Positions 6,997-60,125 of a stretch of 64,000 bases of DNA are shown here, in pieces. Position numbers and translations under genes: made by a program. Within the stretch, counting starts at the first letter, position 1. Every line of letters begins with the position of its first letter. The DNA lies in the NCBI GenBank assembly GCA_043757405.1, contig JAYVPI010000024.1:16412-80411 (forward strand), in the 5' to 3' direction. Below the pieces are notes generated by a model. That model ran no database searches and was not told the DNA's origin. It saw nothing but the letters and a program-made list of their open reading frames with translations. This stretch comes from Alphaproteobacteria bacterium (lineage in GTDB: Bacteria > Pseudomonadota > Alphaproteobacteria > Rickettsiales > 21-14-0-20-44-7).

Positions 6997-7070
<74 letters not shown>

Positions 7071-7075
7071 AACCG

Positions 7076-7681
7076 TCACCGTCCCACCTCTTTCAACGCA
7101 TCAGTAATCACCTGCTCCAATTTCTTATCGTCATTAGCCACCTTATTCACCGCCAAAAACGCATCCATCCGCGCAATCCCCAAATTGGTCAACGCCGAAA
7201 TCGCATCATTCCTCATATTATCCATTGCCGGTTGCCTGCCTTTTAAATCGGGAATCGGCAATCGTGAATCGGCAATTATGGAGCCCACCTTATCCTTCAA
7301 CTCCGTCACCAGCCGCAGCGCCAATTTCGGCCCCACGCCTGTCGCCTTGGACAAAAACGCCTTATCCTGCGCCGCAATCGCCTGCATCATTTCATTGGGT
7401 GTAAACGCCGAGAGCAAAGCCAGCGCCACTTTCGCGCCCACGCCTTGAACATTAGTCAAAATCCGGAACCACTTCTGCTCAGCTTCCGTCGCAAACCCAT
7501 ATAAATGAATATGATCCTCGCGCACATGCGTTTCAATAAACAACGCCGCGCCACTTCCCGAACCGCCGACTGAATGCAAAGTTTTGCCCGAACAAAAAAC
7601 CAGATATCCAACCCCGCCGACATCAATAATCAGCCTGTCTTCATCAACCGCGTCGATAATTCCTTTGAGCCTGCCGATCAT
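7076..7681 (-). CDS. ruvA: Holliday junction DNA-binding protein RuvA, carrying an in-frame repeat insertion
   Basis: N-terminus MIGRLKG with OB-fold and HhH domains, and a C-terminal domain III. It lies directly upstream of ruvB. Confidence 0.9.
   Translation of the reverse strand: MIGRLKGIIDAVDEDRLIIDVGGVGYLVFCSGKTLHSVGGSGSGAALFIETHVREDHIHLYGFATEAEQKWFRILTNVQGVGAKVALALLSAFTPNEMMQAIAAQDKAFLSKATGVGPKLALRLVTELKDKVGSIIADSRLPIPDLKGRQPAMDNMRNDAISALTNLGIARMDAFLAVNKVANDDKKLEQVITDALKEVGR
7222..7276. repeat. heptamer-arm hairpin element inside ruvA
   Basis: ccattgccggttgcctgcc - tttta - aatcgggaatcggcaatcgtgaatcggcaat. It is read as IADSRLPIPDLKGRQPAM in RuvA. Confidence 0.8.
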
Positions 7682-9236: not shown

Positions 9237-11267
9237 AGCCTTTTGGGCGGAATCACTCCAGGAAAACCGCCACGCCGCAAAAAACCTTCCAGCGGCGGCA
9301 AAAAACCGCGCAAGAAAAAATCCGGCCCGAAAAAATTCGCCAAAACCCGTATCCTATTGAAGCTAGCTTCCGCCTTCGCTGCCGCATGTTTCATCGTTCT
9401 CTTCCTACTCATCATCATCTACGGCCATGACCTCCCAGATATCGACAAACTCTACGATGACAACCTCCAGCAAAGCGTCACCATCCTCGATTACAAAGGC
9501 AATACCATCGCTACTTATGGCGATTACTTTACTGAATTCGTGCAATATCGCGACATCCCCGAAGACCTAATAAACGCCGTTGTCGCCACCGAAGACCGCC
9601 GCTTCTTCAACCATTGGGGCCTCGACCCGCGTGGCATGATACGCGCTATGGCCAGCAATATCCTCCACGGCCATGTCGGCCAGGGCGGCAGCACTGTCAC
9701 CCAACAGCTCGCCAAAATAGTTTTCCTAAAACCCGAGCGCAAACTGAAGCGCAAAATCCAGGAAGCCATGCTCGCCATTTGGCTGGAGAAAAAATTCACC
9801 AAGGAACAAATCATCACCATGTATTTGAACCGCGTTTATCTCGGCAGTGGCGTATATGGCGTCGATGCCGCGGCACATAAATACTTCAACAAGAACGCCC
9901 GCCAATTGAACTTATACGAATCCGCCATGCTCGCCGGGATGCTTAAAGCCCCATCAACATATTCCCCCGCCAACAACCCAAATCTCGCCGCCGAGCGCAC
10001 TAAACAAGTTTTGCTCAACATGGTCGATGACGAAAAAATCACCGAAAAACAAATGAACCGCGCTTTGAAAACCGGCGCCCAAGTAAAAATCCAAACCATC
10101 AATCCCAGCACCAAATATTATGCAGATTTCGTAATCGACCAAATCGAAGAAATCATCGGAAAAACTTCGGATAACATTGTCGTAAAAACCACCTTCCGCC
10201 CCGATCTCCAGGCAATGGCTGAACAAAGCATTTCCAAAACCATGCTCGAATTCGCTGATAAGAAAAAAGCCGGACAGGCCGCGCTTGTCGCCATGAAGCC
10301 AAACGGCGCAGTCCTCGCCCTAATCGGCGGCGTTGATTATGCCGAAAGCCAATTTAACCGCGCCACGCAAGCCCAACGCCAGCCCGGCTCCTCCTTCAAA
10401 CTCTTTGTCTATACCGCCGCCATGATGTATGGCAAAAACCCTGATGACTTAATCAATGACGAACCAACCCGCATCGGCCAGGGGAAAAATTCTTGGACGC
10501 CATCAAACTATGACGGCAAATATCACGGCATGGTGACCTTGCGCGAAGCCTTTGCGCATTCATACAATGCCGCCGCCGCCAACCTCGCCCAAGAAATTGG
10601 CATCAGCAACGTAGTCTTCGTCGCCAAAAAAATGGGCATCAAATCCCAACTCGCCCAAGTTCCCAGTATCGCTCTCGGCTCCAGCGAAGTTAACCTGCTC
10701 GAACTAACCACCGCCTATGCCCATATCGCCAATAATGGCAACGCAGTCTATCCATATGCGGTAGAAGAAATCAAAACCCAGGGCGGCCAAATTCTCTATC
10801 AACGCGCCGATATCGGCATCCCGCAAATCATCGATCCCGAAACCGTACATAAAATGAATGATCTCATGAAAGCCGTTGTCACCCAAGGCACCGCCCGCGG
10901 CGCACAAATCGGCCGCGATGTCGCCGGCAAAACCGGCACCAGCCAAGATTTCCACGACGCCTGGTTCATCGGCTTCACCCCGCAGCTCATCACCGGAGTT
11001 TGGGTCGGTAATGACGACAATGCCGAGATGAACAAAGTCACCGGCGGCTCCCTCCCTGCCCGTATCTGGGCCCAATTCATGCGTCCGGCATTGGCTGGCG
11101 CACCTGCGCTTGCTATCAATTCCAGTTATGGCGGCTTCGGCGGTTTCACCAATAGCATTTCCGGCGGCGTTCAAAGCTTCTGGGATAGTTTAACCGGCGA
11201 TAGCGATGATACCCCGCCACGCCGCCAACCAGAAAATAATCCACGGAGTCTTTATCATGGCCATTGA
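9213..11267 (+). CDS. mrcA: class A penicillin-binding protein (PBP1A-type transglycosylase/transpeptidase)
   Basis: Glycosyltransferase motifs ATEDRRFFNHWG and GGSTVTQQLAK, plus transpeptidase motifs SSFK and KTGT. The start is ambiguous: the ORF track uses TTG at 9192, and the first ATG is at 9213. Both lie inside the octamer repeat. Confidence 0.85.
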   Translation: MQPRNYITSLLGGITPGKPPRRKKPSSGGKKPRKKKSGPKKFAKTRILLKLASAFAAACFIVLFLLIIIYGHDLPDIDKLYDDNLQQSVTILDYKGNTIATYGDYFTEFVQYRDIPEDLINAVVATEDRRFFNHWGLDPRGMIRAMASNILHGHVGQGGSTVTQQLAKIVFLKPERKLKRKIQEAMLAIWLEKKFTKEQIITMYLNRVYLGSGVYGVDAAAHKYFNKNARQLNLYESAMLAGMLKAPSTYSPANNPNLAAERTKQVLLNMVDDEKITEKQMNRALKTGAQVKIQTINPSTKYYADFVIDQIEEIIGKTSDNIVVKTTFRPDLQAMAEQSISKTMLEFADKKKAGQAALVAMKPNGAVLALIGGVDYAESQFNRATQAQRQPGSSFKLFVYTAAMMYGKNPDDLINDEPTRIGQGKNSWTPSNYDGKYHGMVTLREAFAHSYNAAAANLAQEIGISNVVFVAKKMGIKSQLAQVPSIALGSSEVNLLELTTAYAHIANNGNAVYPYAVEEIKTQGGQILYQRADIGIPQIIDPETVHKMNDLMKAVVTQGTARGAQIGRDVAGKTGTSQDFHDAWFIGFTPQLITGVWVGNDDNAEMNKVTGGSLPARIWAQFMRPALAGAPALAINSSYGGFGGFTNSISGGVQSFWDSLTGDSDDTPPRRQPENNPRSLYHGH

Positions 11268-12588
11268 TAATATTACCTTCGCTGAGAAACTAATCGCCAA
11301 ATGCAAAACCTTCGGCGCCACCGATGCCGAAGTCATGACCGGCGCCGGTGCCGATATTTCCGTCACTATCCGCAACGGCAAATTAGAAGACCTAATCCGC
11401 GCCGAAAGCTCCGGCTTTTCACTTCGCGTTTTCGTCGACAACCGCTCCGGCACAATCTCTTCCTCCAAATTCGCCGATGCCGATAAGCTAGCCGAAACCG
11501 CCGTCAATATGGCCAAAGCCGCGCCAGTTGATGAATTTTCCCAACTCGCGCCAAAGAAACTTTTATACAAGGCCAGCCTGGATTTAGATATCTACGACCC
11601 GCAAGAACCACCCGAAAACAAATTAATCGACCTCGCCATGAGCGTCGAAGCCACCGCGCTCGCCGTCAAAGGCATCACCAATTCCGAAGGCGGCGATGCC
11701 AGCTTCGCCAGTTATGAAAACACCCTGGTCACCTCTCACGGTTTCGCCAAAAGCCACAAATCATCCCGCACCGGCCTCTCTGTCCGCGTCCTCGCCGGCA
11801 GCGGAACCGGCATGCAACGTGATTATGATTATTCCGCCGCCCGTTATTTCAGCGACCTCGAATCTCCTGAAAAAATTGGCCTTGAAGCCGCCCGCCGCGT
11901 CCTGGAAAAACTAAACCCGCGCAAAGTCCCCTCTGGCCGCTATCCCGTAATTTTTGACCCGCGCATTTCCCGCAACTTAGTCTCTGATTTCGCCACCGGC
12001 GTCAGCGGCTCATCAGTGGCCCGCGGCACTAGCTATCTCAAAAGCAAAATGGAAGAAAAACTATTCCCCATCAACATCAACATCATCGACGACCCCCATA
12101 TCAAACGCGGCCAGGCCAGCAAACCTTTCGACGGCGAAGGCGTCGCCAACGCCAAATTAAAACTGGTAGAAAACGGAGTATTGAAATCCTGGCTCCTCGA
12201 CACCCGCTCCGCCAACCAATTAAAGCTAATCACCAATGGCCGCGCCAGCCGCGGCGGCGGCGGCCCATCATCGCCATCCAATACAAACCTATATTTGGAA
12301 AACGGCACTCTTCCGGTTGAAAAAATGCTCGCCGAAATCAAATCCGGCTTCTATGTCACCGAAGTTTTCGGCATGGGCATCAACTACACCAATGGTGATT
12401 ATTCCCAAGGCGCCGCCGGTTTCTGGATCGAAAACGGCGAGCTGGCCTATCCAGTCAGCGAAGTAACTCTCGCCGGAAATCTCCTCGAAATGTTCCAAAA
12501 CCTCACCCCGGCAAATGACCTGAAAATGAAATACTCCACCAACGCCCCCACGTTAAGAATCGACGGTATGACCCTGGCGGGAATATAA
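11257..12588 (+). CDS. pmbA: metalloprotease PmbA/TldE
   Basis: PmbA/TldD-family pattern with a C-terminal GDYSQGAAGFWIENGE motif. The start is taken at MAIDNITF and overlaps the PBP stop by 11 nt. Confidence 0.85.
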   Translation: MAIDNITFAEKLIAKCKTFGATDAEVMTGAGADISVTIRNGKLEDLIRAESSGFSLRVFVDNRSGTISSSKFADADKLAETAVNMAKAAPVDEFSQLAPKKLLYKASLDLDIYDPQEPPENKLIDLAMSVEATALAVKGITNSEGGDASFASYENTLVTSHGFAKSHKSSRTGLSVRVLAGSGTGMQRDYDYSAARYFSDLESPEKIGLEAARRVLEKLNPRKVPSGRYPVIFDPRISRNLVSDFATGVSGSSVARGTSYLKSKMEEKLFPININIIDDPHIKRGQASKPFDGEGVANAKLKLVENGVLKSWLLDTRSANQLKLITNGRASRGGGGPSSPSNTNLYLENGTLPVEKMLAEIKSGFYVTEVFGMGINYTNGDYSQGAAGFWIENGELAYPVSEVTLAGNLLEMFQNLTPANDLKMKYSTNAPTLRIDGMTLAGI

Positions 12589-15241: not shown

Positions 15242-15640
15242 ATGCAAGAAGCAGCCTCTAATTTCGATGACCAAGTGCACAAGCTCCATGAGCTCAAAGC
15301 CTCTGTGGCAGATGATCTTTCTGTTGTGGTGAAGGAAATTGCTCAAACCGGCTATAATCCACAAAACATCCTCACCGACATTATCAAACTCGCCCGCCTC
15401 CTCGATATTTCCGCCCCCGCCCCGCGCACTACTGCCAGCACCATTGCCGACCCGCGCTATAATTTACTGGAATATATAAAACGCCACGCCAATTCCTCGG
15501 TCCTGCGTGAAATCCACGGCGATGAAATCTTATTTGATAGAAAAAAACCTTTTACCTGTATCAGCCAAATCCAAGAAATTTTTGAAGACGTCTCCGAAAA
15601 ACTAACGCATAATTTTACAAAGCAGGCCGAATATGCATAG
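15242..15640 (+). CDS. hypothetical protein, 132 aa, divergent from fliD
   Basis: Clean ORF with a promoter-like sequence upstream. No motif recognised. Confidence 0.45.
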   Translation: MQEAASNFDDQVHKLHELKASVADDLSVVVKEIAQTGYNPQNILTDIIKLARLLDISAPAPRTTASTIADPRYNLLEYIKRHANSSVLREIHGDEILFDRKKPFTCISQIQEIFEDVSEKLTHNFTKQAEYA

Positions 15641-15789: not shown

Positions 15790-16497
15790 TTAAATCAGCC
15801 CATTACTCTTGAAACTGTAATGCTCGGTTTCAGAAATAATCAAATGATCATGCACTTTCAGCTCCAGTGGTTTCGCCGCTGCGATAATTGCTTGAGTCAA
15901 ATCGATATCCGCCCGCGATGGTGACGGATCGCCACTCGGATGGTTATGCACCAGAATAATCGATGACGCCGCCAGCTCCAAAGCCCGTTTCACAATTTCA
16001 CGCGGATAAGCCAGCGTATGGTTGATCGTCCCCTCTTGCTGCACCTCATCACCAATCAGCATATTTTTGGAGTTCAAAAACACAATCCTGAATTGTTCAT
16101 TCTTCAAATGCCCCATTTCCGCGCGGCAATAATCCAATAATTTCAGCCACGAATTCAACACCGGCTTTTCCTTAGCTTCCGTCAGCAACAGCCGCGACGA
16201 TGCTTCCTGCACCGTCTTAATCGCCGCAATCGCCGCTTCATTAACCCCATCAATCTTCGATAATGCCGCCTTATCCGCCGTCAGCACTTTTGCCAGTGAA
16301 CCAAACTTCGCTATCAATTCTTTCGCCAATGGTTTCACGTCAAAGCGCGGCGAGGATGCAAATAATATAACCTCCAGCAATTCATAATCCGCCAACGCTT
16401 TCGGCTGTTTCAAAAATCTTTCGCGTAATCTTTTTCGGTGGCCGGTATAATGCGGCACTTCTTTTATTTTCTCCGCCGCGCCGAATAAATCAGCCAT
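15790..16497 (-). CDS. radC: RadC-like JAB-domain protein (UPF0758)
   Basis: N-terminal GHRKRLRERF and HhH region, plus the JAMM motif HNHPSGDPSPS. The start is taken at MADLFG. Confidence 0.85.
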   Translation of the reverse strand: MADLFGAAEKIKEVPHYTGHRKRLRERFLKQPKALADYELLEVILFASSPRFDVKPLAKELIAKFGSLAKVLTADKAALSKIDGVNEAAIAAIKTVQEASSRLLLTEAKEKPVLNSWLKLLDYCRAEMGHLKNEQFRIVFLNSKNMLIGDEVQQEGTINHTLAYPREIVKRALELAASSIILVHNHPSGDPSPSRADIDLTQAIIAAAKPLELKVHDHLIISETEHYSFKSNGLI

Positions 16498-40736: not shown

Positions 40737-42278
<1,542 letters not shown>

Positions 42279-51992: not shown

Positions 51993-52103
51993 TCAAGCCC
52001 CTACTTCCGTTCCACCAACCGTCATCGACGAAATCAACAGCGAAGGCTGCCCAACCCCCACCGGCACGCCTTGCCCATCCTTGCCGCAAGTACTGATGCC
52101 GGG
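51993..52103 (-). pseudogene. orphan duplicate of the last ~34 codons of tldD
   Basis: Reads [36 protein letters not shown], compared with [34 protein letters not shown] at the real tldD end. The nucleotide sequence differs at many synonymous sites. Confidence 0.85.
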
Positions 52104-52268
52104 GCCAGCCGTCTCACTACAATTATCAGCGTGAACAAAAATTAGTAGACTTTCACCGCTTATTACTATATATGTTGCCTTCTTCCCATAAGAATCATAT
52201 TTTCACTACAAAAGCTTATATAAAACAAAATAGATTGTGTTTAACTGCAATTGAAATAGTAATTTATC

Positions 52269-52856
52269 ATGAAACTGGCGCTTGCAACACAAAATAGCTT
52301 TACTGGAAATAATTTGTCTAAAAAAGACCGTTTGAAAGAAATTATCATAAAAAAATCCCTTAAAAAGGGGGATTTCACTTTAGCGTCCGGAGCTAAAAGC
52401 GATTATTTGTTTGATTTGAAAGCCACCCTGATGGATTCCGAAGGCGCCAATCTGGCCGGGCACTTGATCCTGGAAAAAATAGCCGAGGATATCGACGCTA
52501 TCGGCGGCCTGGAACTAGGCGCCTGCCCTGCCATAGATGCCGCCAATATCATAAGCTTCCAACTCAACCGCAAACTAAAAGCCTTTTACGTCCGCAAAGA
52601 GAAAAAAGGCCGCGGCACAGACCAGCTTATTGAAGGTTGCCAGCTTAACCATGGCGATAAGATTGTAATTCTTGACGATGTAACCACCAAAGGCGGTTCG
52701 GTTAAGGAAGCGATAAAAGCCGTTCAAGATCTTGGGTGCAAAGTTGTTAAAGTCCTCTCTGTCGTTGATAGAAATGAAGGCGCTGAAGCGAACCTGGCCA
52801 AAGATGGGATCGGGCTTGATTATATCTTTTCCAAAGATGAATTGCTGAACTCATGA
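52269..52856 (+). CDS. pyrE: orotate phosphoribosyltransferase
   Basis: FTLASGAKSDYLFD and the PRPP-binding loop IVILDDVTTKGGS. Confidence 0.8.
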   Translation: MKLALATQNSFTGNNLSKKDRLKEIIIKKSLKKGDFTLASGAKSDYLFDLKATLMDSEGANLAGHLILEKIAEDIDAIGGLELGACPAIDAANIISFQLNRKLKAFYVRKEKKGRGTDQLIEGCQLNHGDKIVILDDVTTKGGSVKEAIKAVQDLGCKVVKVLSVVDRNEGAEANLAKDGIGLDYIFSKDELLNS

Positions 52857-52860
52857 CCAA

Positions 52861-53202
52861 ATGAGCGTTCATAATTTCTTACCAAAAAAAGCAGAAGTTA
52901 TATTATCCACAGCTGCAAAAAACGGCTCCATAAGCTTGGACGAAATCTCCGATTTCTGCAAATATATCGGTGAATATTATAAAACCGCGAATTCGGGACG
53001 GCGGGTGATTTCCTATATCTTGTGGCGAGTTTTCTTAAAATATCAGGATAAATATGAAGCAGATTATATGACCCTGGAAGATTCGGAGAATTTAATAGCC
53101 AAACTTCAGCCAATCGACAGATTTTTAAAATATCTTCAAGGAAATATTGAATTAGAACCCGACGAGATAATTAAAATTTGTGACAATATAACCCGCTTAT
53201 AA
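52861..53202 (+). CDS. hypothetical protein, 113 aa, orphan
   Basis: A+T-rich ORF 4 nt downstream of pyrE. No motif recognised. Confidence 0.45.
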   Translation: MSVHNFLPKKAEVILSTAAKNGSISLDEISDFCKYIGEYYKTANSGRRVISYILWRVFLKYQDKYEADYMTLEDSENLIAKLQPIDRFLKYLQGNIELEPDEIIKICDNITRL

Positions 53203-53212
53203 TAATCAAGCC

Positions 53213-54658
53213 TTAAACCTCCGTCCCCCCTACCGTCATGGAGCTAATCAGCAACGAAGGCTGCCCCACTCCCACCGGCACCCCCTGCCCATCCTTGCCA
53301 CAAGTCCCAATCCCCGGATCAAGCTGCATATCATTCCCCACCATCGAAATCTTCTGCATCGCGTCCAACCCGTTGCCAATCAGCGTCGCCCCCTTCAAAG
53401 GCCGCGTCACTTTCCCGTTTTCAATCCGGTAAGCCTCCGTCGCGCTGAACACGAACTTGCCTGAAACAATATCCACCTGCCCGCCGCCGAAATATGGCGC
53501 GTAAATCCCGTTCTTCACCGATGCAATCATCTCATCTTGCGTATGCGTCCCCGCTTCCATAAACGTATTCGTCATCCTTGGCAGCGGCTTATGCGCATAG
53601 CTTTCCCGCCGTCCGTTCCCAGTCGGGGGCAAACCCATCAGCCGTGCATTTAACCTATCCTGCATCATGCCCACCATAATCCCGTCCTCAATCAAAACAT
53701 TCCTTTGCGTCGGCGTTCCCTCATCATCAATATTCAAAGACCCGCGCCGGTTCGGAATCGTCCCATCATCAACAACATTAACACCTTTCGATGCCACACG
53801 CTTCCCCATCATCTCCGAATAAACGGATGTTTTCTTGCGATTAAAATCCCCCTCAAACCCATGCCCGATCGCCTCATGCAACAACACCGCCGGCCATCCC
53901 GGCCCCAGCACCACCGGAAACTCCCCCGCCGGCGCCGGAATCGATTCCAGATTCACCAATGCCTGGCGCAACGCATCATCAGCCTGCGCCCGCCACTTAT
54001 CGGCTGAAATAAATTCCAGATATCCCGCACGTCCGCCAACCCCATTCCCGCCACGCTCCATGCGCTTGTTATCCTCAACCGTAACCGAAATATTCAACCG
54101 CACCAATGGCCGAAAATCCGTAGCAATCCGCCCATCCCCGCGCAACACCATCACCGACTGATGCTCCCCCGATATCGAAACCGAAACCTGCCGCACCCGC
54201 GGATCCCGCCCACGCAGATAAGCGTCGATGTCTTGCAGCAGTTTCACCTTTTCAGCAAAGCCAAGCCCATGAATCGGGTTAGTTTCAACATATAATTGCC
54301 GATTCTCGATTGACGATTGCCGATTTTTTCCCTTCAATCGAGAATCGGCAATCGGCAATCGGCAATCCCTTCCCTTCACCGCCCCCATCGTCCCCGCCGC
54401 CCGCAAAATCGCCTCCTCACTCAAAACTGAGGAGTGCGCATAAGCCACCGCCTCATCCACCACCCCACGCAAACCAAACCCTTGTGACTGATCAAACGAA
54501 GCGTTCTTCAACTTCCCATCATCAAATACTAAAGACTCACTCTCCGAAATCTCGATGAACAACTCGCCATCATCAAGCTTGCCGATAGAACCAGCAACAA
54601 TGCGAGAGAGCTTGGCTTCGGATGTGTCGGCGGCCTGTAAAAATATATCTTTATTCAT
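53213..54658 (-). CDS. tldD: metalloprotease TldD, carrying an in-frame repeat insertion
   Basis: HEAIGHGFEGD metalloprotease motif and the TldD/PmbA C-terminal domain. Confidence 0.9.
   Translation of the reverse strand: MNKDIFLQAADTSEAKLSRIVAGSIGKLDDGELFIEISESESLVFDDGKLKNASFDQSQGFGLRGVVDEAVAYAHSSVLSEEAILRAAGTMGAVKGRDCRLPIADSRLKGKNRQSSIENRQLYVETNPIHGLGFAEKVKLLQDIDAYLRGRDPRVRQVSVSISGEHQSVMVLRGDGRIATDFRPLVRLNISVTVEDNKRMERGGNGVGGRAGYLEFISADKWRAQADDALRQALVNLESIPAPAGEFPVVLGPGWPAVLLHEAIGHGFEGDFNRKKTSVYSEMMGKRVASKGVNVVDDGTIPNRRGSLNIDDEGTPTQRNVLIEDGIMVGMMQDRLNARLMGLPPTGNGRRESYAHKPLPRMTNTFMEAGTHTQDEMIASVKNGIYAPYFGGGQVDIVSGKFVFSATEAYRIENGKVTRPLKGATLIGNGLDAMQKISMVGNDMQLDPGIGTCGKDGQGVPVGVGQPSLLISSMTVGGTEV
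54294..54368. repeat. 75 nt heptamer-arm hairpin element inside tldD
   Basis: aattgccgattctcgattgacgattgccgatt - ttttcccttc - aatcgagaatcggcaatcggcaatcggcaatcc, read as [25 protein letters not shown]. Confidence 0.9.
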
Positions 54659-58729: not shown

Positions 58730-59253
58730 TGTCAAATCATGCAGAACTTGGTAGCTACAACAATGAGAGCGCCGTCCGCATTTTGAGAAAGCCTTTTCAA
58801 TATGGCGAAATGCTCATGGATATCGCCATGATTTTTAATCAGCCAGTTTATTTGAGCCAATTCCCAGCAATTGAAGACTTAGCAAACCAACTTAGAGACT
58901 TCGGTGAGAACAAAGTTGGGCCAATGCGTGGAAGTTTTGACAATATAAAAACTGCCGATGCGGCCATTGTAATTGCATTTCATAGGGCCAAACAATTCCT
59001 AACTTCATTCGTAGAAAATGACCAATATGGTCGCATATTTTTTACAGTTGAAAGTATGGAGTTAGAACCATCACAATTCCCAAAAAGCACCGGCCCCGCC
59101 CGTATCGAATTCCTCGACCATATAATTTCCCACACCCCAAAGGTGACTTATACTTTATCATCCGAAGATGAAGCCTTATTGCAAACAATCGCCGAAGGTT
59201 TAAGAAAACAACCCCCAACCCGTAATAAAACTGAAGAAGTAAGAGCATTATGA
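58729..59253 (+). CDS. hypothetical protein, 174 aa, wedged between cysH and cysD
   Basis: TAATG overlap with the cysH stop and ATGA overlap with the cysD start. More A+T-rich than its neighbours. No motif recognised. Confidence 0.45.
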   Translation: MSNHAELGSYNNESAVRILRKPFQYGEMLMDIAMIFNQPVYLSQFPAIEDLANQLRDFGENKVGPMRGSFDNIKTADAAIVIAFHRAKQFLTSFVENDQYGRIFFTVESMELEPSQFPKSTGPARIEFLDHIISHTPKVTYTLSSEDEALLQTIAEGLRKQPPTRNKTEEVRAL

Positions 59254-60125
59254 CAAATCAAAAATCAGCAATCGGCAATCAGCAATCGGCAATGGACCAC
59301 CTCGACAAACTCGAGGCCGAATCCATCTACATCTTCCGCGAAGCCTTCCACAAAATCAAAAAGCTCGGTATGTTGTGGAGTTTCGGCAAAGACTCCAACG
59401 TCATGTGCTGGCTGGCGATGAAAGCTTTCTACGGCAAAATCCCATTCCCATTGATCCAGCTCGACACCGAATTGGAAATGGACGAAGTTTACGCCTTCCG
59501 TGACCATTATAAAAAAGAATGGAACGTCAACCTCATCCAGGAAATCTGCCCGCCATATGAATCCACCGATCCATCTCTCCCACACAGCGCCCGCATCGCC
59601 GCCCGCAAAACCGGCGGCTTGAAACAAGTCCTCGACCGCGAACGCTTCGACGGAATCATCGCCGGCATCCGCCGCGACGAGGAAGGCACCCGCGCCAAAG
59701 AACGCTATTTCTCCCCCCGCGGCGTCGATAATGATTGGAACGTAAAAGACCAACCCCCAGAATTCTGGGGCCAATACATGACCGATTTCCCTCCGGGAAC
59801 GCATGTCCGCATCCACCCGCTTTTGCACTGGACCGAGCTAGACGTCTGGCTCTACATCAAACGCGAGGGCCTGCCAATCGTGCCATTATATTTTGCCAAA
59901 CCCTACAACGAATTCTACGGCGAAGATTACAAGGGCGCGATGATGCGCTTTAGGTCATTGGGCGAAAAAGGCATCACCTATCCGCTACCATCCACCGCCA
60001 CCAACATTGACGAAATCATTGAAGAATTGAAGACCACCAAAGTCTCCGAACGCGCCGGAAGACCAATGGGTGGGAATGAAGATGAGTCGAGTTTTGAGAG
60101 ATTGAGAGCTGCCGGATACATGTAA
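59250..60125 (+). CDS. cysD: sulfate adenylyltransferase subunit 2
   Basis: LEAESIYIFRE and WSFGKDS (PP-loop), plus the RRDEEGTRAKER motif. Confidence 0.9.
   Translation: MTNQKSAIGNQQSAMDHLDKLEAESIYIFREAFHKIKKLGMLWSFGKDSNVMCWLAMKAFYGKIPFPLIQLDTELEMDEVYAFRDHYKKEWNVNLIQEICPPYESTDPSLPHSARIAARKTGGLKQVLDRERFDGIIAGIRRDEEGTRAKERYFSPRGVDNDWNVKDQPPEFWGQYMTDFPPGTHVRIHPLLHWTELDVWLYIKREGLPIVPLYFAKPYNEFYGEDYKGAMMRFRSLGEKGITYPLPSTATNIDEIIEELKTTKVSERAGRPMGGNEDESSFERLRAAGYM
59255..59293. repeat. tandem heptamer array (AATCRGC)n forming the first codons of cysD
   Basis: aaatcaaaaatcagcaatcggcaatcagcaatcggcaatg, read as NQKSAIGNQQSAM. Confidence 0.9.

Follow-up and report, generated by a model that had tools for sequence, protein, structure and literature searches.

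A hairpin of heptamer arrays in the reading frame of tldD and its probable relation to four-helix-bundle cassettes in an alphaproteobacterium

Introduction

Tandem arrays of a seven-nucleotide unit have been described in several bacteria. Geobacter metallireducens carries arrays of four heptanucleotides of the GGGACCG family in 49 intergenic and intragenic copies (PMC2700814), and GGGAATC and GGGGA(C/T)T arrays occur in Xanthomonas and Nostoc (PMC4692102). Palindromic DNA within protein genes is known from Rickettsia, where the Rickettsia palindromic elements are ~100-150 bp long, have a family consensus and a conserved peptide, and are added to their hosts as whole elements (PMC10969869). A third system is the intervening sequence (IVS) in the 23S rRNA of Coxiella burnetii, a ~28-bp stem with GACAGAT heptamers in its arm and an S23p (PF05635) cargo, which is cut by RNase III (PMC4990558). 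Here we describe a hairpin of two inverted heptamer arrays that lies in frame within the tldD gene of an alphaproteobacterium of the order Rickettsiales, in a stretch of 64,000 nucleotides (positions 16,412 to 80,411 of contig JAYVPI010000024.1, assembly GCA_043757405.1) that is called the window below. The original prediction of this hairpin, made from the letters of the window, had presented its heptamer-built design as a different type of element; with the Geobacter, Xanthomonas and Nostoc arrays at hand, such a type is not without precedent.

The assembly comprises 1.86 Mb in 35 contigs, with 47% G+C and 91% completeness. Positions without a prefix are those of the window; those with a C number refer to contigs of the assembly, G numbers to related genomes and L numbers to loci from elsewhere.

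Results

The hairpin and its folding

The hairpin occupies 54295-54367 (73 nt) and consists of inverted 31-32-nt arrays of the heptamer ATTGCCG/AATCGGC. The left arm of the + strand (54295-54325) is ATTGCCGATTCTCGATTGACGATTGCCGATT, which divides into the units ATTGCCG ATTCTCG ATTGACG ATTGCCG ATT, and the right arm (54336-54367) is AATCGAGAATCGGCAATCGGCAATCGGCAATC, with the units AATCGAG AATCGGC AATCGGC AATCGGC AATC. The parts of the hairpin, in the order of the tldD mRNA, and a direct repeat that overlaps it are as follows:

54336 to 54367, − strand: 5′ arm in the mRNA (right arm of the + strand); unit ends, outward from the loop in the AATC orientation, GAG GGC GGC GGC; the "antisense" ADCRLPI reading
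54326 to 54335, − strand: 10-nt loop between the arms, TTTTCCCTTC on the + strand, translated within L-K-G-K; only this copy has it
54295 to 54325, − strand: 3′ arm in the mRNA (left arm of the + strand); units GGC GTC GAG GGC, translated as NRQSSIENRQ; the "sense" NRQSAIG reading
54328 to 54336, no strand: first copy of a 9-nt direct repeat, TTCCCTTCA; the second copy is at 54370 to 54378, and the two bracket the right arm with a period of 42 nt (14 codons)

In a repeat search the 31-nt arms showed 84% complementarity, and a shift of the register by two units gives 19-20 perfect base pairs between them. The arms are not mirror images, their common GAG unit being offset by two units. When folded as RNA, the strand of the tldD mRNA gave −35.9 kcal/mol (z = −3.9), a value equalled by one of 200 shuffled sequences; the fold of the DNA (z = −6.0) was equalled by none of 200. 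The stability of the stem, −0.463 kcal/mol per nt, is close to the median of the intergenic copies (−0.468). The heptamer itself is strongly over-represented, since (AATCGGC)2 with at most two mismatches occurs 23 times in the window against an expectation of 1.26.

It is clear that the complete heptamer hairpin predicted in tldD is real, being made of inverted arrays that fold better than shuffled sequences. The boundaries first given for it, 54294-54368, lie one base off the codon boundaries (54293-54367), a trivial shift, and the in-frame reading of 25 codons stands; the resulting 25-aa peptide forms residues 98-122 of the protein. The reading of the parts was right as well, the GCCGATT arm giving CRLPIAD, the AATCGGC arm NRQS.I and the loop KGK. 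No promoter or terminator was found at the hairpin, and an Rfam search with it returned only sub-threshold chance hits. A + strand open reading frame (ORF) of 82 aa at 54310-54558, antisense to tldD, was rejected as spurious, being a low-complexity read-through of the repeat.

The host gene

The gene that contains the hairpin and the gene of its partner are both found in the window:

53213 to 54658, − strand: tldD, 481 aa, intact, with the hairpin at codons 97-121; Pfam domains PF01523, PF19290 and PF19289 all above cut-off
11206 to 12588, + strand: pmbA/tldE, 460 aa, intact; a paralogue match at 27% identity

The product of tldD matches Escherichia coli TldD (5NJ5_A) with E = 2e-148, and its AlphaFold2 model superimposes on the same structure with a template modelling score (TM) of 0.92 in Foldseek. 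The closest named TldD homologues come from genomes labelled "Alphaproteobacteria bacterium". In an alignment of 120 homologues the residues H261, E262, H266, E269, D271, C453 and K455 are invariant, and the HExxxH zinc motif is present; the HExxxH, Cys and Lys residues have zinc-binding and clamp roles in TldD, and PmbA/TldE is its heterodimer partner (PMC5810440). Outside the linker that is described below, the comparison with the closest relative (L150) gave a dN/dS of 0.037 at a dS of ~1.4. Because dN/dS is this low, the catalytic residues are invariant and the partner gene pmbA is intact, tldD looks like a working gene and not the pseudogene whose possibility had been raised with the prediction.

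We also noticed that the final ~36 codons of tldD are present a second time at 51995-52110 on the − strand, 1.2 kb downstream, with 92% protein identity. This copy is separated from the end of the live gene by two + strand ORFs (52269-53202), which code for a 195-aa phosphoribosyltransferase-like protein and a 113-aa orphan. The duplicate has the look of a former gene end that recombination displaced and left behind.

Replacement of a linker

TldD was compared with the proteins from 27 genomes of the same order and with the three closest proteins in a large protein collection (90, 88 and 85% identity), for which the DNA was also available. Between the anchors V/I-K-G and L-Y, all 30 relatives have 14-19 residues, whereas the protein of this genome has 25. 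The linkers of the three closest TldDs are exactly 16 residues long each and mutually unrelated in sequence (TSRDIKSQMPDVRKQK, KEVTAVGEKQPGKAHQ and TDATVAAEKKSEVPKK); E. coli TldD also has a linker here, and the gap in the HMMER alignment is only 8 residues. The 75 nt thus stand in place of ~48 nt, a net change of +27 nt or +9 aa. The hairpin is absent from the three closest TldDs, and AATCGGC arrays were found in none of the 40 relatives' genomes searched. Of the lineage-specific 25-aa insertion that had been proposed, the first half therefore holds and the second does not, as a linker of 14-19 residues is present in all relatives. The hairpin has thus replaced an unrelated coil linker of 14-19 aa.

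The model of TldD, built with the 120 homologues, has a mean predicted local distance difference test score (pLDDT) of 89.8, and residues 97-116 are its only long segment below 50. They lie in the N-terminal domain between the helix of residues 81-95 and that of residues 128-131, and this predicted coil of low confidence between two helices agrees with the surface loop that had been expected at the insertion point. In the closest relative, which has no hairpin, the equivalent segment is modelled as coil too (pLDDT 52-70). TldD's N-terminal domain is pseudo-twofold and has pairs of helices on the outer, convex face of a long sheet (PMC5810440); going by this description, the linker would join the two halves of this domain on the outside of the particle.

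Similarly, three other genes of the assembly contain an in-frame hairpin:

C11:31753-31823: ubiH-like in-frame hairpin (AATCGGC) in a UbiH-family monooxygenase
C19:99895-99968: gpsA in-frame hairpin (CGTTAAT/GATTAAC), +17 aa relative to 3K96
C34:18722-18782: priA in-frame hairpin (TGATCGT/AACGATA) in the zinc-finger region

In the UbiH-like gene the hairpin replaces a segment of 28-30 residues in front of the conserved LLIGADG, with a net change of −4 or −5 aa against three relatives. The hairpin region of gpsA is 17 residues longer than that of the solved structure, and purH, with a single array, differs by +2 or −2 residues from two solved homologues. In these comparisons arrays take the place of codons that were already there and alter the total length little, and overwriting is the rule.

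The undecayed stem, with its 19-20 perfect pairs and unreduced stability per nt, could be taken to mean that the hairpin is kept for a function, either as an RNA control element (a cleavage site of RNase III or a pause in translation) or as a tether that alters TldD/PmbA. The gene for RNase III is present in the genome, and IVS stems of like design are cut by this enzyme (PMC4990558). However, no relative conserves the hairpin or indeed any sequence at the site, both peptides recur elsewhere, at ~30 positions of unrelated proteins, disorder is predicted for the peptide, and the lack of a promoter, terminator or Rfam match points the same way. An intact stem is equally explained by youth, the AATCGGC family being absent from relatives, and we regard a retained function as quite improbable.

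Reuse of the same sites in related genomes

The genome of a sister of the same genus, G001, has (AGAGGTC)3.4 in its tldD linker, with the same L-Y boundary at the end. The only in-phase match between the arrays of the two genomes at this site is a TC dinucleotide, without significance. The tldD linker of the closest relative has a lag-7 self-match of 0.45, against ~0.25 in most others. The ubiH site in front of LLIGADG behaves in the same way: G001 has (CTTCATC)3.6 there and the family-level relative G004 has (CAACCAT)4.6 (locus L159, 1620-1651), with a separate in-frame hairpin of GAGAATC/CGACTCC at 1833-1897 of that locus. As ~172 kb of the relatives' loci contain only 14 period-7 arrays, these coincidences of site are not background.

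The heptamer arrays of the genome

Tandem Repeats Finder (TRF) detected 303 period-7 arrays in the assembly, more than of any other period, with a length peak at 30-33 nt. Among arrays of at least 24 nt, 67 of 213 (31%) lie deep in ORFs, against a coding density of 89% (p ~1e-86; genes were called crudely for this census, as longest ORFs). Selection thus acts against arrays in genes, though many remain there. Which ones remain depends on the unit, since units that are stop-free in both orientations are found deep in ORFs in 44 of 79 cases and units with stops both ways in only 5 of 44 (Fisher p = 9e-7).

All six frames of AATCGGC are free of stop codons, which accounts for its tolerance in genes; the repeat gives NRQSAIG whichever frame of one strand is read, and ADCRLPI in all three frames of the other strand. 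There are ~45 AATCGGC arms in the genome, and 30 of the 42 that were scored are genic. Single intragenic AATCGGC arrays give the NRQSAIG (sense) reading in 20 cases and the ADCRLPI (antisense) reading in two (p = 1.2e-4), a bias that suggests either that the translated peptide is under selection or that orientation follows a rule linked to transcription. Array length and phase are fixed, ATT(GCCGATT)4 being 31 nt.

The arrays form 50 close inverted pairs with loops of at most 38 nt, of which only the four in tldD, the UbiH-family monooxygenase, gpsA and priA lie deep in ORFs. The hairpins have arms of ~31 nt and a total size of 60-90 nt. The loops of the other AATCGGC hairpins are unrelated to that of tldD and to one another, and AATCGGC arms are single more often than paired.

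A stereotyped size, ~50 copies and in-frame positions in four housekeeping genes are what would be seen if a palindrome like a Rickettsia palindromic element or a miniature inverted-repeat transposable element (MITE) had transposed into tldD as one unit of ~75 nt, and the 9-nt direct repeat TTCCCTTCA flanks one of the tldD arms. This repeat is the longest flanking repeat among 210 arrays and the sole case of at least 9 nt, with ~0.35 such cases expected by chance. It would also fit a history in two steps, in which a single "sense" array first served as an 11-aa linker and the inverted arm was added later. The net change at tldD, however, is +27 nt and not +75, and at ubiH it is −12 to −15 nt; the loops have nothing in common, no consensus extends beyond the unit, and single arms outnumber pairs. 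The lengths of the direct repeats that flank the arrays were distributed as in permuted controls, which means that a family-wide target duplication is lacking. No Y1/RAYT transposase (PF01797; RAYT, REP-associated tyrosine transposase; REP, repetitive extragenic palindromic sequence) was found in the genome, with control genomes positive and other transposase families not searched, and no reverse transcriptase (PF00078), the enzyme behind the idea of retrohoming of the diversity-generating-retroelement (DGR)/Avd type. Transposition as a unit is thus unlikely. The element was not classed as a MITE, since it has inverted arms and no enriched target duplication, Y1 transposase or reverse transcriptase, nor as a REPIN (a hairpin of paired REP sequences), since PF01797 is absent. 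The parallel with Rickettsia palindromic elements that had been drawn for tldD is correct in that the palindrome is translated; it does not extend to a fixed consensus, as the loop is unique, single arms occur and target duplication is not a feature of the family.

Four-helix-bundle cassettes

The genome contains 10-11 PF05635 genes, each enclosed by an inverted pair of arrays whose 7- or 8-nt unit is its own; of the genes at the loci below, one is interrupted by a TGA and another is a fragment.

C1:258737, C34:7791, C22:11863, C11:76439, C5:23910, C31:32060, C1:49385, C7:69496, C34:22768, C7:15078 and C1:42532: PF05635 genes

Several of the cassette units are also abundant families of dispersed arrays. 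The cassette at C7:15009-15435 has AATCGGC/AATCAGC arms, and its protein is a TIGR02436 four-helix bundle related to PDB 2RLD. The unit ends of its right arm (15404-15434) are GGC GGC GAG GGC, identical to those of the array at C5:115318, and the 3′ arm of the tldD hairpin (GGC GTC GAG GGC) matches this cassette arm at 30 of 31 nt. The 5′ arm (GAG GGC GGC GGC) has the haplotype of the array at C11:124499. The double-variant unit AATCGAG was found in only five of the ~45 arms, namely the cassette arm, both arms of the tldD hairpin and two other copies, and the polarity ATTGCCG...AATCGGC is shared by all seven close AATCGGC hairpins and the C7 cassette (p = 0.008). Because the AATCGAG variant recurs in five arms and the polarity is uniform, the tldD arms were probably copied from other copies and not grown in place. 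Fold-back copying of one tldD arm from the other was rejected, as the arms are not mirror images and each matches a different haplotype elsewhere. The arms agree with those of the IVS-type cassette in unit, polarity and the AATCGAG variant; there is no four-helix-bundle ORF between them, just the 10-nt loop, so that the tldD copy is at most a gene-less derivative of the cassette.

AATCGGC arrays do occur in other phyla, with the same 25-mer in more than 119 contigs. In ten contigs of Acidobacteriota, Planctomycetota and Verrucomicrobiota, chosen only for containing (AATCGGC)3.5, there are 12 four-helix-bundle loci. These loci match only the core of the C7 paralogue (38-57% identity over ~110 residues), and 11 of the 12 have AATCGGC, or a unit one mismatch away from it, in their flanks. 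The other nine paralogues hit two loci in these contigs, both far from arrays. None of the 15 PF05635 loci in G001 and G004 is of the C7 type. The G001 cassettes that are orthologous to two cassettes of our genome (84-87% aa identity) keep the units of the latter, and in G004 the intragenic ubiH units match its own cassette arms (L167 and L165), TGGTTGA being equal to CAACCAT and AGAATCC close to GAGAATC. The unit and the protein lineage thus travel together.

Growth in place by polymerase slippage offers another origin, in which the array is a plain heptanucleotide microsatellite, the inverted array arose by chance or by template switching, and there is no link to the four-helix-bundle protein. 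In many prokaryotes no long simple sequence repeats are as abundant as those of heptanucleotides, with a preference for four units and with inverted pairs (PMC4692102; PMC4679880; PMC2700814), and in the relatives L023 and L150 the linker at the tldD spot has heptamer periodicities of another kind. Against slippage, the length and phase of the arrays are fixed, with no spread in copy number, and AATCGAG recurs in five arms that include a cassette arm. There are also ~45 AATCGGC loci in this genome and none in 40 relatives, and across phyla the unit goes with a single protein subfamily, while in G001 the orthologous cassettes have kept their units. We consider slippage alone rather unlikely.

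Further arrays in the window and the genome

Other arrays of the same type were seen in the window:

6997 to 7069: intergenic sibling hairpin with the same unit and polarity as in tldD (ATTGCCG ×4.7, loop, AATCGGC-type arm)
41941 to 41972, + strand: single in-frame (AATCGGC)4.6 array in a 514-aa ORF
59263 to 59293, + strand: AATCAGC/AATCGGC array directly after a start codon, read as MTNQKSAIGNQQSAM and onward

A third AATCGGC-type array (7246-7276) follows the sibling hairpin after 177 nt, inside the next ORF, and has the rare ADSRLPIPD reading. Two genes have an array directly after the start codon, at 40737-40778 (ATGACCAATCAAATCAAAAATCAAAAATC and onward, giving MTNQIKNQKSK) and at 59250-59293 (ATGACAAATCAAAAATCAGCAATCGGC and onward, giving MTNQKSAIGNQQSAM); the N-termini of both proteins are therefore encoded by the repeat. 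A TruB-like gene (C11:41204-41425) contains two inverted AATCGGC arrays in frame, 158 nt apart, and this pair flanks a conserved enzyme segment of ~50 residues, where the cargo of a cassette would sit. The unit TCCGCAC, which flanks a Limisphaerales protein considered in the Discussion, forms an inverted pair in this genome too (C17:26450-26585).

Discussion

It seems likely that the tldD hairpin is the arm pair, lacking the gene, of an IVS-type cassette with the unit AATCGGC, which was copied into DNA coding for a linker and has been kept as a translated passenger. The course of events might have been as follows. A cassette of the AATCGGC type would have entered the lineage, and arrays of its unit would have spread to ~45 sites. 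At tldD they would have overwritten the DNA for a coil linker, unconstrained in sequence, between the halves of the N-terminal domain, the arms being templated from other copies, presumably by ectopic templating or conversion. Their persistence would be due to the absence of stops in AATCGGC, to a total length that keeps the frame, and to a site that tolerates any sequence and some extra length. The result would be translated as a disordered tether of 25 aa (net +9 aa), a passenger and not an adaptation of TldD. The peptide is presumably expressed and neutral, and the four-helix-bundle protein would be expected to recognise its unit. As a side effect, the stem of ~20 bp in the mRNA may be a substrate of RNase III, by analogy with IVS stems.

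Several observations weigh against this explanation. The machinery is one of them: neither the reverse transcriptase nor the Y1/RAYT transposase that we searched for was found, and we saw no strain-level movement, no donor-recipient pair and no filled site next to an empty one. The TTCCCTTCA repeat could fit a discrete insertion step; it is not a feature of the family and may be due to chance. The link between the unit and the protein has its own exceptions. The external contigs were selected for the array, so that only the direction in which the array implies the protein subfamily was covered; a Limisphaerales protein of the same subfamily (L082:184-522, 50% identity) has GTGCGGA/TCCGCAC arms and not AATCGGC; and two abundant families of units, AAACGAT/AACGATT (~35 arrays), are without a cassette in this 91%-complete assembly. 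Finally, the tldD hairpin is known from one assembly alone, and two scans of metagenome assemblies, one with the flanks and a variable gap and the other with the loop and the inner arms, did not find the exact hairpin.

The last points, together with the 35 contigs of the assembly and its incompleteness, are also those that could suggest an artefact, that is, a misassembly at the palindrome or a recently inactivated tldD. Such an explanation is extremely improbable in view of the open frame of 481 codons with conserved flanks, all catalytic residues and a low dN/dS. Moreover, 50 similar hairpins and ~300 arrays are spread over many contigs, and sister genomes from other assemblies have such arrays with other units, in-frame hairpins among them.

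A broader and more tentative proposal can also be made, which we hold to be possible and no stronger than that. Each PF05635/TIGR02436 (Avd-like) subfamily may specify its own 7-nt unit, with arrays of it actively written into the genome. The arrays of a newly arrived cassette, here the AATCGGC type with its nearest relatives in other phyla, would bloom, and at the permissive sites of housekeeping genes they would write over earlier arrays and loops without constraint. Such sites would then be stable in position and fluid in sequence, as with AATCGGC, the AGAGGTC of G001 and the period-7 sequence of the closest relative in the tldD linker and with AATCGGC, CTTCATC and CAACCAT in ubiH. It would amount to a transposase-free system of protein and repeat that remodels protein linkers, and it would account for the excess of heptanucleotides in bacteria.

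The tldD example shows what repeat DNA needs in order to be translated: a stop-free unit, a length that keeps the frame and a coil linker free of sequence constraint. Codons are replaced, and related genomes have other heptamers in the same places, which suggests that repeats are the source of some "hypervariable linkers" in bacterial proteins. As one particular unit goes with one subfamily of the uncharacterised "23S rRNA IVS protein", in this genome and across phyla, the abundance of 7-nt repeats in bacteria becomes a testable matter. On the practical side, segments of this kind can mislead annotation, the trimming of alignments, dN/dS scans and quality checks of metagenome-assembled genomes.

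In the literature we found no complete heptamer hairpin translated in a conserved enzyme, no replacement in place of insertion, no reuse of a site with different units and no link between a unit and a protein subfamily. The Geobacter, Xanthomonas and Nostoc arrays resemble those described here in their 7-nt unit, their length of about four units, their dispersal, the species-specific unit, the convergent inverted pairs and their occurrence in some genes in spite of being under-represented in ORFs. They differ in that the tldD unit is not G-rich: AATCGGC has no G-tracts, and the G-quadruplex explanation (PMC4692102) was rejected as inapplicable. The available text of those papers does not describe a translated inverted pair in a conserved enzyme, the replacement of codons or a tie to a four-helix-bundle cassette.

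With Rickettsia palindromic elements the tldD hairpin shares the in-frame palindrome in unrelated alphaproteobacterial housekeeping genes, the extra peptide at sites compatible with the fold and the absence of a transposase. It differs in being half the size, in having nothing but a 7-nt unit and a unique loop, in the occurrence of single arms and in substituting for codons; this distinction is drawn from the descriptions of those elements. REP sequences and REPINs with their RAYT (PMC8049555) are similar in that short hairpin pairs occur in tens per genome, persist vertically and are tied to a single-copy protein gene with the same flanking repeats. Here, in contrast, there is no Y1/RAYT gene, the protein is a small four-helix bundle without known catalytic activity, the arms are tandem 7-mers and many copies are intragenic. 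The IVS of Coxiella differs from the tldD copy, which has no ORF, lies in a protein frame and not in rRNA, and must be translated through and not excised, its stem being a putative substrate of RNase III; the cassette at C7:15009-15435 of the same genome, on the other hand, has exactly the build of the Coxiella IVS.

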